64,000 nt of DNA from Enterobacteria phage P922. The notes beneath the pieces are model-generated. The model worked only from the letters and a program-made list of their open reading frames with translations. It did no database searches and was not told the DNA's origin. This document shows positions 5,625 to 55,935 of this stretch, piece by piece. The DNA lies in sequence record OR999189.1. One strand, given 5' to 3'. Position numbers and translations under genes: made by a program. The first letter of the stretch is position 1, and each line of letters starts with the position of its first letter.

Positions 5625-7249
<1,625 letters not shown>

Positions 7250-33084: not shown

Positions 33085-33809
33085 ATGAAACTAATCTTTT
33101 TAAGTGGTGTAAAGCGTAGTGGAAAAGATACTACTGCTGATTTTATCATGAGCAATTATTCTGCGGTTAAATATCAACTTGCTGGTCCTATTAAAGATGC
33201 ATTGGCTTATGCATGGGGTGTATTTGCAGAAAACACTGACTATCCTTGCTTAACTCGTAAAGAGTTTGAAGGAATTGACTATGATCGTGAGACTAATTTA
33301 AATCTGACTAAATCAGAAGTAATCACGATTATGGAACAAGCATTTTGCTATCTTAATAGTAAAAGCCCAATTAAAGGTGTGTGTGTTTTTGAGGACGAAG
33401 GACAAGAATCAGTTGATTCCGTAGCATGTAACAAGATTATTGACGTTATAAATAATATTGAAGATCAATGGTCAGTCCGTCGTCTGATGCAAGCCCTAGG
33501 TACGGATTTGATTGTTAATAACTTCGACCGCATGTATTGGGTAAAATTATTTGCTTTAGATTATCTTGATAAATTTAACTCAGGTTATGATTATTATATC
33601 GTTCCTGATACTCGTCAAGATCATGAAATGGATGCGGCTAGGGCGATGGGTGCTACAGTAATTCATGTAGTTCGTCCTGGTCAAAAATCCAATGATACTC
33701 ATATTACAGAAGCTGGATTGCCAATTCGTGATGGCGATTTAGTAATTACAAACGATGGTTCTCTTGAAGAACTTTTTTCTAAAATTAAAAATACACTAAA
33801 GGTACTATA

Positions 33810-33810
<1 letters not shown>
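33085..33810 (+). CDS. 1: deoxynucleoside monophosphate kinase gp1
   Basis: 241 aa; P-loop GVKRSGKDT; N-terminus MKLIFLSGVKRSGKDTTADFIMSNY as in T4 gp1. Confidence 0.9.
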
Positions 33811-34495
<685 letters not shown>

Positions 34496-34507
34496 TTTCA
34501 CAAAGTT

Positions 34508-34537
34508 GTTTACACGTTGATGAGGTAGTGATACTAT
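34508..34537 (+). promoter_or_regulatory. early promoter (GTTTAC -35 / TGATACTAT extended -10) for ipI
   Basis: GTTTAC at 34508 and TACTAT at 34532, 18-bp spacer. Confidence 0.55.
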
Positions 34538-34567
34538 TACCTTATCAAAATTAATTAGGAAAATAAA

Positions 34568-34855
34568 ATGAAAACATTTAAAGAATTTACTTCTACAGCT
34601 ACCCCGGTTTCTACTATTACCGAAGCTACTCTTACTTCTGAAGTTATTAAAGCAAATAAAGGACGAGAAGGTAAACCAATGATTAGTCTGGTTGATGGCG
34701 AAGAAATCAAAGGTACTGTTTACTTAGGTGATGGGTGGTCTGCTAAAAAGGATGGTGCTACAATCGTTATCTCTCCTGCTGAAGAAACTGCGTTGTTTAA
34801 AGCTAAACACATTTCTGCGGCACATCTCAAGATTATTGCTAAAAATCTTTTGTAA
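34568..34855 (+). CDS. ipI: internal head protein I precursor (IPI-like)
   Basis: 95 aa; N-terminal leader MKTFKEFTS with an ITE cleavage motif; body ATLTSEVIKANKGREGKPMISLVDGEEIKG resembles T4 IPI* from memory. Confidence 0.65.
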   Translation: MKTFKEFTSTATPVSTITEATLTSEVIKANKGREGKPMISLVDGEEIKGTVYLGDGWSAKKDGATIVISPAEETALFKAKHISAAHLKIIAKNLL

Positions 34856-34873
34856 TAAATAATTCACAAAGTT

Positions 34874-34903
34874 GTTTACATGGGGTTTTAGTTGTGATAC
34901 TAT
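34874..34903 (+). promoter_or_regulatory. early promoter for the second ip-like gene
   Basis: GTTTAC at 34874, TACTAT at 34898; -10/5'UTR identical to the ipI promoter. Confidence 0.55.
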
Positions 34904-34933
34904 TACCTTATCAAAATTAATTAGGAAAATAAA

Positions 34934-35242
34934 ATGAAAACTTACCAAGAATTTATCAATGAAGCGGCTGCACCAAAGACATTCGTTATTAATACTCAAG
35001 CGAGTCTTGATGATGAGTACGCAGATGCAATTCTGAGGTCACTTGCTAAGAACGGCGTTGAAGTATCTGCATCGGACTTTAAGAAAGGGTCTTCCGAGAT
35101 GTTTATTTCTATAACTAAAGGATCTAAAGCTAAGATTAAATCATCATTCGGAGTTGCTCGTACCGATCAAATCGACAATCATGACTTTAAACAAACTGGT
35201 GCTAAACGGCATAATACGATTGCATCACGCGGAATAAAATAG
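34934..35242 (+). CDS. internal-protein-like protein with capsid targeting leader
   Basis: 102 aa; leader MKTYQEFINEA; identical promoter/5'UTR module to ipI. Confidence 0.65.
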   Translation: MKTYQEFINEAAAPKTFVINTQASLDDEYADAILRSLAKNGVEVSASDFKKGSSEMFISITKGSKAKIKSSFGVARTDQIDNHDFKQTGAKRHNTIASRGIK

Positions 35243-35253
35243 TTTATAAAACC

Positions 35254-35283
35254 GTTTACTTTTAGATAGGGTAGTGATACTAT
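35254..35283 (+). promoter_or_regulatory. early promoter
   Basis: GTTTAC at 35254, TGATACTAT around 35278; palindrome AGGGTA...TACCCT flanks the -10. Confidence 0.5.
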
Positions 35284-35311
35284 TACCCTATCAACTACTG
35301 AGGAGAATAAA

Positions 35312-35497
35312 ATGAAACGTTGTGAATTAATTCGAAATGTTGCTATTGCAATTTCTGCTTCCGCTTTTAGTTTTTCAATGTTTGTTGGATTTATATGTGG
35401 ATTATTGACTACAGCAGAAAATGTTTTTTCACTTGTAGTAGCATTTTTAATTGGTTTAATCGCTATTGTTATGGATAAAATTTCTAAAGGTGAATAA
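35312..35497 (+). CDS. small hydrophobic membrane protein
   Basis: 61 aa with two hydrophobic helices; preceded by an early promoter and GAGGAG RBS. Confidence 0.5.
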   Translation: MKRCELIRNVAIAISASAFSFSMFVGFICGLLTTAENVFSLVVAFLIGLIAIVMDKISKGE

Positions 35498-35902
35498 ATG
35501 AATATTAACGAATATTATGTTTATGCTGGGGATTATGCAAATCCTTCTCATTTTGAAGGTAATTTAATACCTGATAGAGTTTTTAATACTCCTTTTGAAG
35601 CGTGGAGTTGGGTTGAAAGTAAAAATGGATTTTCTTATCGTTATGTTGAAGTAACTGATTGGAAAGGAACTAAATATCCTAAAGAGCATTATTATGTAGA
35701 CCCATCTAAAGTAAATTTTCTTTTGTTCGCAGGCGATAATTACTATCCTTGCGGTGGATATGATGATTTGATTGCGTATGCTGAAACAGAAGATGAATTA
35801 CGCCAAATTATTGAAGACAATAAATCAAAACGATTTGGCGATAGTTTTGACTGGTGGCAAATCGTAAATGCCCATACACATACTATTGTTGATAAAGGTT
35901 AA
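35498..35902 (+). CDS. hypothetical protein
   Basis: 134-aa ORF, tightly coupled to the upstream ORF. Confidence 0.55.
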   Translation: MNINEYYVYAGDYANPSHFEGNLIPDRVFNTPFEAWSWVESKNGFSYRYVEVTDWKGTKYPKEHYYVDPSKVNFLLFAGDNYYPCGGYDDLIAYAETEDELRQIIEDNKSKRFGDSFDWWQIVNAHTHTIVDKG

Positions 35903-35904
35903 TA

Positions 35905-36192
35905 ATGATTCTTTATGCGAAAGTATCATCCATTGAAAATGGATATAAATATGATCAAGAAGCAGCTAAAGCCTTGATTGATGATTATGGCATTTTAACA
36001 TGTTTTGAAGTTGAAAAGGTTTACATTGACCGTTCATCTTCTCAAGTTAAATTAGTGAAGGAAGACCGTAAATTTAATACAGTAAATTTTGATTTCTTTA
36101 TTGAAACGGAAAAAGGTCCTCTTGAATATGATATTTTCAAGAATCCTTTGGGTCTTGAATGCATCGTAAATATGTATTATCATAAATGGTAA
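35905..36192 (+). CDS. hypothetical protein
   Basis: 95-aa ORF starting 3 nt after the upstream stop. Confidence 0.5.
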   Translation: MILYAKVSSIENGYKYDQEAAKALIDDYGILTCFEVEKVYIDRSSSQVKLVKEDRKFNTVNFDFFIETEKGPLEYDIFKNPLGLECIVNMYYHKW

Positions 36193-36289
36193 ATATGCTT
36201 TAAGAATTATTTGTTATTATTAACTTATATCGCACTGATTAATACCCTCTATCATCAAGGGTTCTTGTTTGAGAGCCTTTGTTAATAAT

Positions 36290-36362
36290 TGGGAATTAGC
36301 CAAGTTGGTAAGGCACTGGATTTTGATTCCAGGATGCAAAGGTTCGAGTCCTTTATTCCCAG
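36290..36362 (+). tRNA. tRNA-Gln (anticodon UUG)
   Basis: Hand-folded cloverleaf: acceptor TGGGAAT/ATTCCCA, anticodon loop ttTTGat, T-loop GGTTCGAGTCC. Confidence 0.8.
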
Positions 36363-36363
36363 C

Positions 36364-36450
36364 GCGAGAATGGTCAAATTGGTAAAGGCACAGCACTTAA
36401 AATGCTGCGGAATGATTTCCTTGTGGGTTCGAGTCCCACTTCTCGCACCA
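36364..36450 (+). tRNA. tRNA-Leu (anticodon UAA)
   Basis: Acceptor GCGAGAA/TTCTCGC, anticodon loop ctTAAaa, long variable arm, encoded CCA. Confidence 0.8.
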
Positions 36451-37907: not shown

Positions 37908-38471
37908 ATGAAAACCTATGCCGAATTTTTAACCGAAGCAGCAAAATTACCATCTGAAGCAGATCTTACTAAAGTATTCTTCCAATTAGACCCAAAAGAC
38001 CGTGGCGATTTTCTTAAGTGGAAAGCTAAAGCTATTGAAATGTATAACATCGATAATAGTTCTTTTACGATGAGTCAAGAAAATAAATTCAATAAAGCAT
38101 TTTTCAAAATTTCTAAGAAATTGGCATCAGGCGCTCAGGTTCCTAAATCTGCCTTAGCTACTCCTGAACGTGCACCTGTTAAAATTTCTAAGAATATGTT
38201 TGACACTAAAAAATATGTTAATGCTTTGAATAAAGCTCTTGACGCATTGGATGATGCAAAGAAGGCAGCCCGTGATCTTCAAGACGTGTACACCGATTTT
38301 GATCGTAAAACTAAAGGTTCTATTTCAAATAGCGAACGCAATAGTGTAAGTGTTTATTCTGATAGCCTTGATGTTCTTGGCGATGCGTATACTGAAATTA
38401 AAAATCGTATTAACACTGCATCTAAGCTAAAAGCTGCCGCAGAAGCTATAATAACTAAACTAGATAAATAA
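37908..38471 (+). CDS. internal-protein-like protein with capsid targeting leader
   Basis: 187 aa; leader MKTYAEFLTEA; followed by a terminator hairpin. Confidence 0.6.
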   Translation: MKTYAEFLTEAAKLPSEADLTKVFFQLDPKDRGDFLKWKAKAIEMYNIDNSSFTMSQENKFNKAFFKISKKLASGAQVPKSALATPERAPVKISKNMFDTKKYVNALNKALDALDDAKKAARDLQDVYTDFDRKTKGSISNSERNSVSVYSDSLDVLGDAYTEIKNRINTASKLKAAAEAIITKLDK

Positions 38472-42480: not shown

Positions 42481-43283
<803 letters not shown>

Positions 43284-44083: not shown

Positions 44084-44659
44084 ATGAAAACGTATAAAGA
44101 ATTTATCGCTGAAGCTTCTGTGGAAAAGGCCAAAGGCATTAATAAAGATGAGTGGACTTACCGAGGAAATGGTTTTGACCCTAAAACAGCCCCTATTGAA
44201 CGATACTTAGCTACAAAAGCTTCCGACTTTAAAGCTTTCGCTTGGGAAGGACTTCGCTGGTGTACTGATCTAAATATTGAAGTTGATGGGCTTAAATTTG
44301 GCCATATTCAAGATGTTGTTGCTAGTAACTTGGACGCAGCTTTTGTTAAAGCTGACGGTGACCTTCGTCGCTGGAATTTAAAATTATTCTCTAAACAGAA
44401 AGGCCCAGTGTTTGTGCCTAAAGCTGGTAAATGGGTTATTGATAATAAATTAGCTAAGGCTGTCAACTTCGCCGGTCTTGAATTTGCCAAGCACAAATCG
44501 GCATGGAAAGGTCTTGATGCAATGGCTTTCCGTAAAGAATTCGCCGAGGTTATGACTAAAGGCGGCTTTAAGGCAGAACTAGATACCTCTAAAGGTACGT
44601 TTAAAGACGCTAATGTTCAGTATGCTTACGCCGTTGCTAATGCAGCCCGTGGTAATTAA
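44084..44659 (+). CDS. internal head protein III-like
   Basis: 191 aa; leader MKTYKEFIAEA; size close to T4 IPIII (about 194 aa). Confidence 0.6.
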   Translation: MKTYKEFIAEASVEKAKGINKDEWTYRGNGFDPKTAPIERYLATKASDFKAFAWEGLRWCTDLNIEVDGLKFGHIQDVVASNLDAAFVKADGDLRRWNLKLFSKQKGPVFVPKAGKWVIDNKLAKAVNFAGLEFAKHKSAWKGLDAMAFRKEFAEVMTKGGFKAELDTSKGTFKDANVQYAYAVANAARGN

Positions 44660-54396: not shown

Positions 54397-54420
54397 ATTT
54401 CAAAAATTTTTCACAAAATT

Positions 54421-54450
54421 GTTTACAAGCATAAAGCTTTATGGTACTAT
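54421..54450 (+). promoter_or_regulatory. early promoter
   Basis: GTTTAC at 54421, TGGTACTATACAACTATCAA at the -10 region; directly after the NTase terminator. Confidence 0.5.
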
Positions 54451-54487
54451 ACAACTATCAAAACAAACACTTAAACGGAAAAACAAA

Positions 54488-54637
54488 ATGAAAATTACAC
54501 CAATTGAAGTAAAAAAGTTGATTGACACAGAAGAAATTTCAGAGTGTTTTGAAAGTTTCTTAGAAGATGCAACTGAAGATAATGCAGTTTATCTCGCTCA
54601 GAAAATTATCGAAACTTATTTGGAGAAGAATCAATGA
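54488..54637 (+). CDS. hypothetical small acidic protein
   Basis: Track ORF starts upstream inside the promoter; first ATG (MKITPIEVKK) gives 49 aa. Confidence 0.4.
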   Translation: MKITPIEVKKLIDTEEISECFESFLEDATEDNAVYLAQKIIETYLEKNQ

Positions 54638-54897
54638 CAGTTTACGTAGATGTTTTAATGAATCATGGATGGAAACTTCGCGGTCATCCAACTAAAAATT
54701 GTCATATGTTCACTGATGGAGATATTGAAGAGCTTCATGAAATGGCAGAAGCAATAGGAATGAAACGTTCTTGGTTTCAAGATAAACGCATTAAACATTA
54801 TGACTTACACGCTCGGCGACGCCAAAAAGCTATAGAACTTGGCGCCGTAGAAGTATCTCGTCGCGAAGCAGTAAAAATTTGGCAAACATTAAAATAA
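54634..54897 (+). CDS. hypothetical protein
   Basis: 87-aa ORF with ATGA overlap with the upstream gene. Confidence 0.45.
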   Translation: MTVYVDVLMNHGWKLRGHPTKNCHMFTDGDIEELHEMAEAIGMKRSWFQDKRIKHYDLHARRRQKAIELGAVEVSRREAVKIWQTLK

Positions 54898-54900
54898 ATT

Positions 54901-54930
54901 GTTTACAGCAGGGTAGTAGTGTGATACTAT
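54901..54930 (+). promoter_or_regulatory. early promoter for the AAA+ ATPase gene
   Basis: GTTTAC at 54901, TGATACTAT ending at 54930; palindrome GGGTA...TACCC flanks the -10. Confidence 0.5.
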
Positions 54931-54966
54931 TACCCTATCAAAACAAATGTAAAATTGGAGAATAAA

Positions 54967-55935
54967 ATGAAAACTGTAACTATCAATAAGGGTATCTACT
55001 TCGGTAAAGAAATCTCTGGAACTTTTGAGCTCTTAGGTGAATGGTTCCCAGATAATGCTCCGGTAGATGCACAAGGAGATGGTAAAGTTTTTGTTGAAAT
55101 TGACGGTAAGCGTCGCGGTGTTTGGGTTTACAAATCAGACATTTCATATGATGGTGTAAAAGTTGAAGAAGTTAAAGAATCATATGAAGATATGAAAACC
55201 CGCATTAATAAAAGATTTAATGTTATGGGAATGATGACGAATGGTATTATTAACGGAAATATTCGTTCATTAATTATCTCTGGTGCGGCGGGTATTGGTA
55301 AAACGTATTCTTTAGATAAAGCTTTGAATAAAGCAAATGATAATGGATACATTGAATATAAAAGCATTAATGGTAAAATCTCTGGTATCGGTCTTTATGA
55401 ACAGCTTTGGAATAATCGTGAAGAGAATTCTGTCCTTTTGATTGATGATGTGGATGTTTTCTCTGATATGGACATTCTTAATCTTCTGAAAGCTGCTCTG
55501 GACACTGGAGAGACCCGTAAAGTCTGCTGGAGCACCGCATCTTCTTACTTAGAAGAAAAAGGCATTGAGCGTGAGTTTGAATTTAAAGGAACGATTGTTT
55601 TTATCACAAACGTTGACATTGACCGCGAATTAGACCGTGGTACTAAACTTGCTCCACATTTACAAGCATTAGTGTCCCGCTCGGTTTATTTGGATTTGGG
55701 TGTTCACACTAATGAAGAAATTATGGTCAGGGTTGAAGATGTTATTCTTTCAACTGACATGATGCAAAAGCGCGGTCTTTCTGATGAAGAAACTTATAAA
55801 GCATTATCATGGATGAAAGTTAATGTTAATCGTTTACGCAATGTTTCACTGCGTACTGCTCTTTATCTTGCTGACTTTATTATGACCGACAAAAACGGTT
55901 GGGAAGAAATTGCTGAGGTTACTCTTCTGAAATAA
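54967..55935 (+). CDS. AAA+ ATPase-like protein
   Basis: First ATG after GGAG RBS (track start is TTG); Walker A SGAAGIGKT and Walker B VLLIDDVD. Confidence 0.65.
   Translation: MKTVTINKGIYFGKEISGTFELLGEWFPDNAPVDAQGDGKVFVEIDGKRRGVWVYKSDISYDGVKVEEVKESYEDMKTRINKRFNVMGMMTNGIINGNIRSLIISGAAGIGKTYSLDKALNKANDNGYIEYKSINGKISGIGLYEQLWNNREENSVLLIDDVDVFSDMDILNLLKAALDTGETRKVCWSTASSYLEEKGIEREFEFKGTIVFITNVDIDRELDRGTKLAPHLQALVSRSVYLDLGVHTNEEIMVRVEDVILSTDMMQKRGLSDEETYKALSWMKVNVNRLRNVSLRTALYLADFIMTDKNGWEEIAEVTLLK

Follow-up and report, generated by a model that had tools for sequence, protein, structure and literature searches.

The window analysed here, the whole 64,000-nucleotide stretch of Enterobacteria phage P922 (OR999189.1), belongs to a Tequatrovirus (T4-like) genome. 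Over 33800-36300 its identity is 99.7% with Escherichia phage EC.W14-2 and, one extra gene aside, ~95% with T4. The EC.W14-2 record (L001, PQ860993.1), which is the closest in GenBank, is labelled complete and circular at 116 kb vs. the ~165-170 kb usual for Tequatrovirus, and has a 'hypothetical protein' annotated over tRNA genes found by ARAGORN; the assembly is probably incomplete and its annotation weak. The plus strand carries, in order, gene 1 (dNMP kinase), 57A, 57B, ipI, an ip7-type gene, trna.4, trna.3 and trna.2, followed by ten contiguous tRNA genes. The interval between the conserved genes 57B and trna.4 is the polymorphic ipI locus, occupied here by two cassettes, ipI and the ip7-type gene, each preceded by a copy of a shared module. 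The features are:

34040-34495, plus strand: gene 57B, conserved left anchor of the ip locus (Pfam PF23474 Acb1, E 2.6e-60)
34497-34514, plus strand: 18-mer TTCACAAAGTTGTTTACA of module 1, exact, comprising an A/T-rich upstream region and the -35 GTTTAC (34508-34513)
34517-34548, plus strand: hairpin of module 1, 14-bp stem (3 G.U pairs) and 4-nt loop (RNA fold -15.9 kcal/mol, z -3.05)
34528-34575, plus strand: 48-mer GTGATACTATTACCTTATCAAAATTAATTAGGAAAATAAAATGAAAAC (GTGATACTATT...ATGAAAAC) of module 1, exact
34568-34855, plus strand: ipI, 95 aa (Pfam IPI_T4, PF11634, E 7e-54, residues 20-95)
34863-34880, plus strand: second exact copy of the 18-mer (module 2), with -35 GTTTAC (34874-34879)
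34880-34911, plus strand: hairpin of module 2, weaker and shifted in register (RNA fold -11.9 kcal/mol, z -1.39)
34894-34941, plus strand: second exact copy of the 48-mer (module 2), with Shine-Dalgarno (SD) 34923-34926 and ATG 34934
34934-35242, plus strand: ip7-type internal protein gene, 102 aa (PHROG 2667 'internal head protein', E 2e-42)
35243-35311, plus strand: module 3 (nhmmer 89 bits; fold -16.4 kcal/mol, z -2.57)
35312-35497, plus strand: trna.4-like small membrane-protein ORF, 61 aa, conserved right anchor (PHROG 1692; T4 annotation trna.4)
about 54895-54970, plus strand: fourth copy, of the same subfamily, 5' of nrdC.10 at a non-ip locus (nhmmer 39 bits, E 3e-11)

The name 57B is that of the T4 and T2 annotations; with a gene of the Acb1 anti-CBASS family directly 5' of the ip cassettes, the interval forms a series of counter-defence genes. 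The ipI product scores 180 bits against PF11634 (cut-off 25), over residues that correspond to mature IPI*, the nuclease inhibitor left once the 19-residue leader (MKTFKEFTSTATPVSTITE) preceding it has been removed. In DNA, the ipI body and T4 ipI share 99.2% identity, and the ipI product differs from T4 IPI by one amino acid. Counterparts of the second gene carry the annotations ip7 (T2) and 'Ip7 protein' (EC.W14-2); in DNA, its body shares 94.6% identity with T2 ip7 and at most 95.7% with that of any sampled phage.

The 18-mer and the 48-mer each occur exactly twice on the plus strand, 366 bp apart, and neither repeat is a product of chance; with dinucleotide-preserving shuffles, the expectation for the 48-mer was 0.00 matches, even with 3 mismatches allowed, and that for the 18-mer was 0.02 matches with 2 mismatches allowed. 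A divergent 13-nt spacer (CGTTGATGAGGTA vs. TGGGGTTTTAGTT) lies between the two blocks, and the full repeat unit extends over 93 nt at 87% identity (34497-34589 vs. 34863-34955). The 48-mer of module 1 contains the -10 core GTGATACTATTACC, the right hairpin arm, the 5'UTR and an SD, AGGA (34557-34560), and runs at its coding end through the ATG (34568) into K and T codons. A preliminary description of this DNA had reported that a ~48-bp module is identical 5' of ipI and of the next ip-like gene while the coding bodies differ; both statements hold, with the exact repeats beginning at 34528 and 34894, and the ipI and ip7 proteins only weakly alike, within their first ~32 residues (BLASTP E 0.001). 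It missed the fourth copy, as well as a third, degenerate one (35236-35317, 75-84% identity, period 380 bp) 5' of the trna.4-like ORF. Its label, a promoter/5'UTR/start-codon module, is a fair one that nonetheless omits two elements described below, the hairpin over the -10 and the capsid-targeting leader (CTS) as a shared coding part.

Module copies 1-3 wholly fill the intergenic spacers of 72, 78 and 69 nt. Their order of elements is an A/T-rich stretch, the -35 GTTTAC, a hairpin around an extended -10 (TG-n-TACTAT), a ~24-nt 5'UTR with SD, and ATG AAA AC. Copy 1 starts at the 57B stop codon (34493-34495); a promoter scan returned TTTACA-17-TACTAT there, with TG before the hexamer and the -10 at 34532-34537, placing the predicted +1 at ~34544 and thus leaving a ~24-nt leader before the ATG. 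Module 3 has its -35 at 35254-35259, its hairpin at 35265-35292 and its -10 TACTAT at 35278-35283, followed by a different 5'UTR (type U2, see below) with SD GAGGAG (35300-35305). T4 early promoters carry GTTTAC at -36 to -31 and a GT-rich stretch 5' of -12 (Nolan 2006). With the -10 set at -12 to -7, GTTTAC falls at -36 to -31 in all three tandem copies, and all three read GTGA-TACTAT, with T at -12, A at -11 and T at -7. The module geometry fits a T4 early promoter, whose activity is predicted from it. The other T4 promoter classes were sought and rejected: the late motif TATAAATA is absent in and near the modules, its nearest plus-strand copies being at 33447 (inside gene 1) and 35944, and inspection by eye found no middle (MotA) TGCTT box at about -30 in the module sequences. 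One base off the late motif is AATAAATA (34854-34861), which overlaps the ipI double stop just 5' of module 2, and which is also found in T4.

In the ip genes the module runs on into ~10 codons encoding a leader of the form MKT[YF][QK]EF..E. The CTS is a ~10-residue propeptide that ends in L/I-x-E and targets internal proteins (IPs) to the prohead core, after which the gp21 protease cleaves it off. The ipI product begins MKTFKEF...ITE, followed by A, with its Pfam domain starting at residue 20, and the ip7 product begins MKTYQEFINE, followed by AAAP. Three further ORFs of the window have CTS-like leaders: 37908-38471 (187 aa, MKTYAEFLTE, PHROG 2280 of unknown function), 43002-43283 (93 aa) and 44084-44659 (191 aa, IPIII-sized, MKTYKEFIAE). 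Only the last of them has an early-promoter-like upstream region, and the exact module is absent from all three.

The hairpin of module 1 encloses TG-n-TACTAT. That of module 2 pairs AUGGGGU with ACCUUAU (2 G.U pairs) and has an inner 4-bp stem, enclosing the -10 TACTAT at 34898-34903; its left arm is of a 'post-ipI' type, as in T4. The -10 is enclosed by the hairpin in all three tandem window copies and in T4, whose two modules show the same two folding modes as the window copies. Because the predicted +1 lies inside the right arm, the hairpin would need read-through RNA or single-stranded DNA to form. It lacks a U-tract, and a scan for intrinsic terminators over 33800-36400 returned 0 terminator-like sites, so a terminator role like that of the PeSL elements discussed below is unsupported for the ip module. 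Pairing is seen in 97% of cells over 17 distinct Tequatrovirus modules that share one register; covariation within Tequatrovirus is weak, at one compensatory pair (G-C to A-U), and 17 of 500 shuffles scored at least as high. In six ip promoters of distant T4-like phages a hairpin occupies this position too, with arms unrelated in sequence, and ip genes of other genera that have an upstream region of their own again show GTTTAC, the -10 and a hairpin over the -10. This conservation of architecture rather than of sequence argues for some function of the hairpin.

One alternative is that the ip genes are old tandem paralogues with diverged bodies, whose 5' ends are alike through purifying selection with no part in recombination. 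A plausible function can be named for each conserved element (-35, extended -10, SD, CTS), and, as just described, distant T4-like phages retain the architecture while the sequence changes. Yet the identity reaches positions that have no consensus requirement. In a search of the window with a module profile, the three tandem ip copies scored 83-89 bits, as against 10-39 bits for the other early-promoter-like sites (10-27 bits when the fourth copy is also set aside), so the modules are more alike than promoter function alone needs. Further observations against constraint alone, given below, concern the reassortment of parts of the module, the position of gene presence/absence junctions and a base private to one lineage; taken with the scores, they make this explanation improbable in our judgment.

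We compared the 57B-to-trna.4 interval in 16 Tequatrovirus loci: the window, T4, T2, nine further GenBank phages and four IMG/VR contigs. The IMG/VR loci were obtained through the 57B protein, 36 in all and mostly from more distant genera; four were near enough for block analysis, and the remainder served solely for the conservation of hairpin architecture. Blocks were tabulated for 15 of the 16 loci, the data for L028 being taken separately. Six unrelated ip families were found: ipI, ip5 (84 aa), ip7 (102 aa) and families of 90, 77 and 74 aa. Their arrangements number at least ten, although the loci were picked partly for differing length and the frequencies are not representative: ipI alone (T4, ECO78), ipI-ip7 (the window), ip5-ip7 (T2), ipI-ip90-ip7-ip74 (UFV-AREG1) and, in other loci, ip90-ip7, ip90-ip7-ip74, ipI-ip77, ip5-ip77, ip7 alone and ip77 alone. 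Each ip-gene junction in the 15 tabulated loci is a 58-85-nt spacer consisting of the module only.

In many more distant T4-like phages (L006, L011, L015, L018, L021, L022, L024, L026, L027, L029-L032, L037 and L040, in each at about 5450) the start of the first ip gene overlaps the stop codon of 57B (TAAAATG). Such genes, without an intergenic module, presumably have no separate promoter and depend on translational coupling to 57B. One of these, the IMG/VR T4-like contig L021, has at about 6170-6250 a module 5' of an ip7-like gene in which the core GATACTATTACCTCATCAA is repeated twice, an internal tandem duplication pointing to slippage, or to unequal exchange, in the -10/right-arm block.

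Within the modules, blocks assort separately. Which 5' block is present (stop codon, -35 and left hairpin arm) goes with the gene lying upstream. For the block of right arm and 5'UTR there are three types, U1 (CCTCATCAAAATTAATTAGGAAAAT), U2 (CCCTATCAACTACTGAGGAGAAT) and U3 (CCCTATCAAAACAAA...GGA), which are untied from the downstream gene: ip90 occurs with U1 (in L028), U2 and U3, ip77 and ip74 each with U2 or U3, and trna.4 with U2 or, in F25, U3. Leader codons reassort as well, with KTFKEF and KTYQEF both seen for each of ipI, ip7, ip90 and ip77. Phages without ipI have, after 57B, a module with the 'post-ipI' left arm, joined through the 18-mer, the same block that the preliminary description had picked out. 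Hybrid modules, window copy 2 included, have imperfect hairpins, as expected if a crossover in the core GTGATACTATTACC united left and right arms of different origin. This reassortment of sub-blocks among the same gene bodies is a four-gamete-like pattern, which counts against selection on 5' ends alone.

The breakpoints between near relatives also lie in the module. Aligned by blastn to T4, which has ipI only, the window matches over 34000-34939 and again from 35274, and both pieces overlap on a single T4 stretch, from the core to ATGAAA. Aligned to UFV-AREG1, with its four ip genes, pieces end or start at 34891, 34965, 35271 and 35317. The breakpoints of both comparisons coincide with the -10 core, ATGAAA or the leader end. 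Divergence likewise shifts across the module, from the near-identity of the ipI body with T4 to the lower identities of the ip7 body. Apart from the stop-codon end and three single bases, the T2 ip5-ip7 spacer matches the window ipI-ip7 spacer. Gene presence/absence junctions inside the module are a further point against constraint as the sole explanation. The preliminary description had proposed that repeats shorter or more degenerate than read, with edges away from gene-content breakpoints, would speak against its reading; the repeats proved as long and exact as read, and gene-content breakpoints do fall at the edges of the module. Its view of the cassettes as recombination substrates is supported by the mosaics and by the breakpoints in the modules, from which we infer the recombination itself.

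Homing endonucleases bring about marker exclusion and co-conversion in T-even crosses. SegB-type breaks could drive conversion over the ip locus in mixed infections, the modules being merely where tracts end; in T4, segB lies in the tRNA cluster about 1.5 kb downstream of the locus. No segB-sized ORF is present among the ten contiguous tRNA genes of the window, and the junctions recur at a few fixed positions in the module instead of being graded from one cleavage site, so that of all the explanations weighed here this one strikes us as the most far-fetched.

We therefore favor, with considerable confidence, a process in which module-mediated recombination adds, deletes or swaps ip cassettes, each independently expressed from its own T4 early promoter. 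The same module flanks all cassettes, within a genome and in co-infecting T-even phages, and would provide the homology for exchange; homologous recombination or gene conversion in the module, through the very active general recombination of the phage, would then insert, delete or exchange an ip gene, and in every case promoter, ribosome site and packaging signal would be in place for the incoming gene. The leader would direct the protein into the prohead and then be cut off by gp21. The ipI-ip7 order of the window could have come about by one in-module crossover between a T4-type (57B-ipI-trna.4) and a T2-type (57B-ip5-ip7-trna.4) locus. Promoter activity, a role for the hairpin and the recombination events are all deduced here from sequence, and the mosaic patterns could in part stem from several old events rather than from a hot spot. 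Between the hairpin arms the strictly invariant core amounts to only ~14 nt, little for classical homologous exchange; the ~100 nt around it are 78-90% identical.

Elements of this kind have already been described, reported in 1994 and generalised in 2010-2014, and the window is one more example. Arbiol 2010 and Comeau 2014 credit Repoila et al. 1994 with conserved promoter/stem-loop-like sequences at variable IP loci and with the hypothesis of IP shuffling, which according to Comeau 2014 included a possible change of host range. As known through these two papers and the T2 ip5/ip7 annotation, the motif of Repoila, Tetart, Bouet and Krisch (EMBO J 1994) lies at the same locus (57B to the tRNA genes), with genes of the same names (ipI, ip5, ip7), and is the same early promoter with an AT-rich stem-loop, for which the same shuffling of ip genes was proposed. 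Against this account the window shows no difference in kind; the ipI-then-ip7 order and a lineage-private base set it apart. Arbiol 2010 described the IP-locus elements as T4 early promoters with weaker AT-rich stem-loops, possibly behind the plasticity of IP loci, and suggested that they confine shuffling to two IP loci.

The ip module also resembles the PeSL cassettes of RB49/phi1, PST/T4 and nt-1/KVP40 (Arbiol 2010, Comeau 2014), in that both have a strong intergenic early promoter, a stem-loop over the -10, an SD and a start codon, and both lie in a hyperplastic region with variable small genes downstream and with indel or replacement junctions inside the element. As in PeSLs, an early promoter is joined with a stem-loop in or beside it, at insertion, deletion or replacement junctions between near relatives. 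The two differ in that PeSLs have an E. coli sigma-70 consensus, while the -35 of the window (GTTTAC/TTTACA) is of the T4 early type; in that PeSLs have a terminator stem with G/C tracts, while the stem in the window is AT-rich, with G.U pairs and no polyG or polyC; and in that the shared unit of the ip module extends into coding sequence as the CTS leader. Integron attC/attI cassettes are similar as small single-gene units with a repeated element forming an imperfect hairpin, in tandem and with variable gene content. The resemblance goes no further: the ip locus has no integrase or site-specific recombination site, each of its cassettes has its own promoter, and exchange presumably proceeds by the general homologous recombination of the phage.

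A quasi-integron process has nonetheless to be weighed, in which exchange between flanking modules would loop out a mini-circle of one gene and one module, to be packaged and to re-integrate at any module. The unit structure, one gene plus one module at periods of 366 and 380 bp, fits such circles, as does the presence of a module of the same subfamily at a non-ip locus, 5' of nrdC.10, and PeSL mini-circles have been demonstrated in the related phages RB49 and phi1 (Arbiol 2010). The same study, however, termed the IP-associated elements analogues and not homologues of PeSLs, and ordinary crossovers can also yield every arrangement observed; we regard the circles as very unlikely. All three alternatives (functional constraint, mini-circles and endonuclease co-conversion) are less well supported than recombination in the module.

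Beyond this known system the window offers minor points that are slightly new, namely a rare ipI-ip7 junction, a private base in both tandem copies and the module at nrdC.10. The complete ipI-ip7 junction was found in only one of 50,697 phage records (EC.W14-2). Both tandem modules read CCTTATC (34542-34546, 34908-34912), which converts a hairpin G-C pair to G.U, vs. CCTCATC or CCCTATC in every other sampled Tequatrovirus module. Among the same 50,697 records, the ipI-upstream module with this base has a 100% match only in EC.W14-2, and an exact 30-mer search of IMG/VR for it gave no match. That two tandem copies have a private base in common counts against constraint alone and suggests gene conversion between them.

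The fourth copy lies 20 kb from the ip locus, 5' of a gene that we call nrdC.10 after RB51, and has the exact core GTGATACTATTACC, a U3-type UTR and ATGAAAACT. It has 39 consecutive nt, GGGTAGTAGTGTGATACTATTACCCTATCAAAACAAATG, in common with the module preceding trna.4 in phage F25. Between nrdC.11 and nrdC.10 the window has two extra ORFs (54419-54637 and 54634-54897) with promoter modules at their bounds, the span 54410-54427 having been grouped with the fourth copy; the RB51 nrdC.11-nrdC.10 spacer has the exact 18-mer TTCACAAAGTTGTTTACA instead. Most of 523 phage records match this region only from the nrdC.10 SD onward. By these similarities the modular principle appears to be at work outside ip loci as well, as Comeau 2014 argued for T4 and PST. 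The nrdC.10 module and its 39-nt identity with the F25 trna.4 module suggest ectopic exchange between ip and non-ip loci, which, if true, runs against the suggested confinement of shuffling to two IP loci (Arbiol 2010). That the tandem modules evolve in concert, through recent gene conversion between the copies, and that the exchange network extends beyond ip loci is a tentative proposal, which we think has somewhat less than an even chance of being right.

T4 IPI is packaged in the head and injected, and Ip1, Ip2 and Ip3 of T4 each inhibit a different GmrSD-type restriction enzyme, which gives a reason for the turnover of the ip locus. Since internal proteins are injected anti-restriction factors, the ip set affects which hosts a phage can infect. 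A module that brings together promoter, ribosome site and packaging signal would render any ip gene exchangeable yet functional, and the shared ip module may therefore be useful for host-range prediction and engineering.
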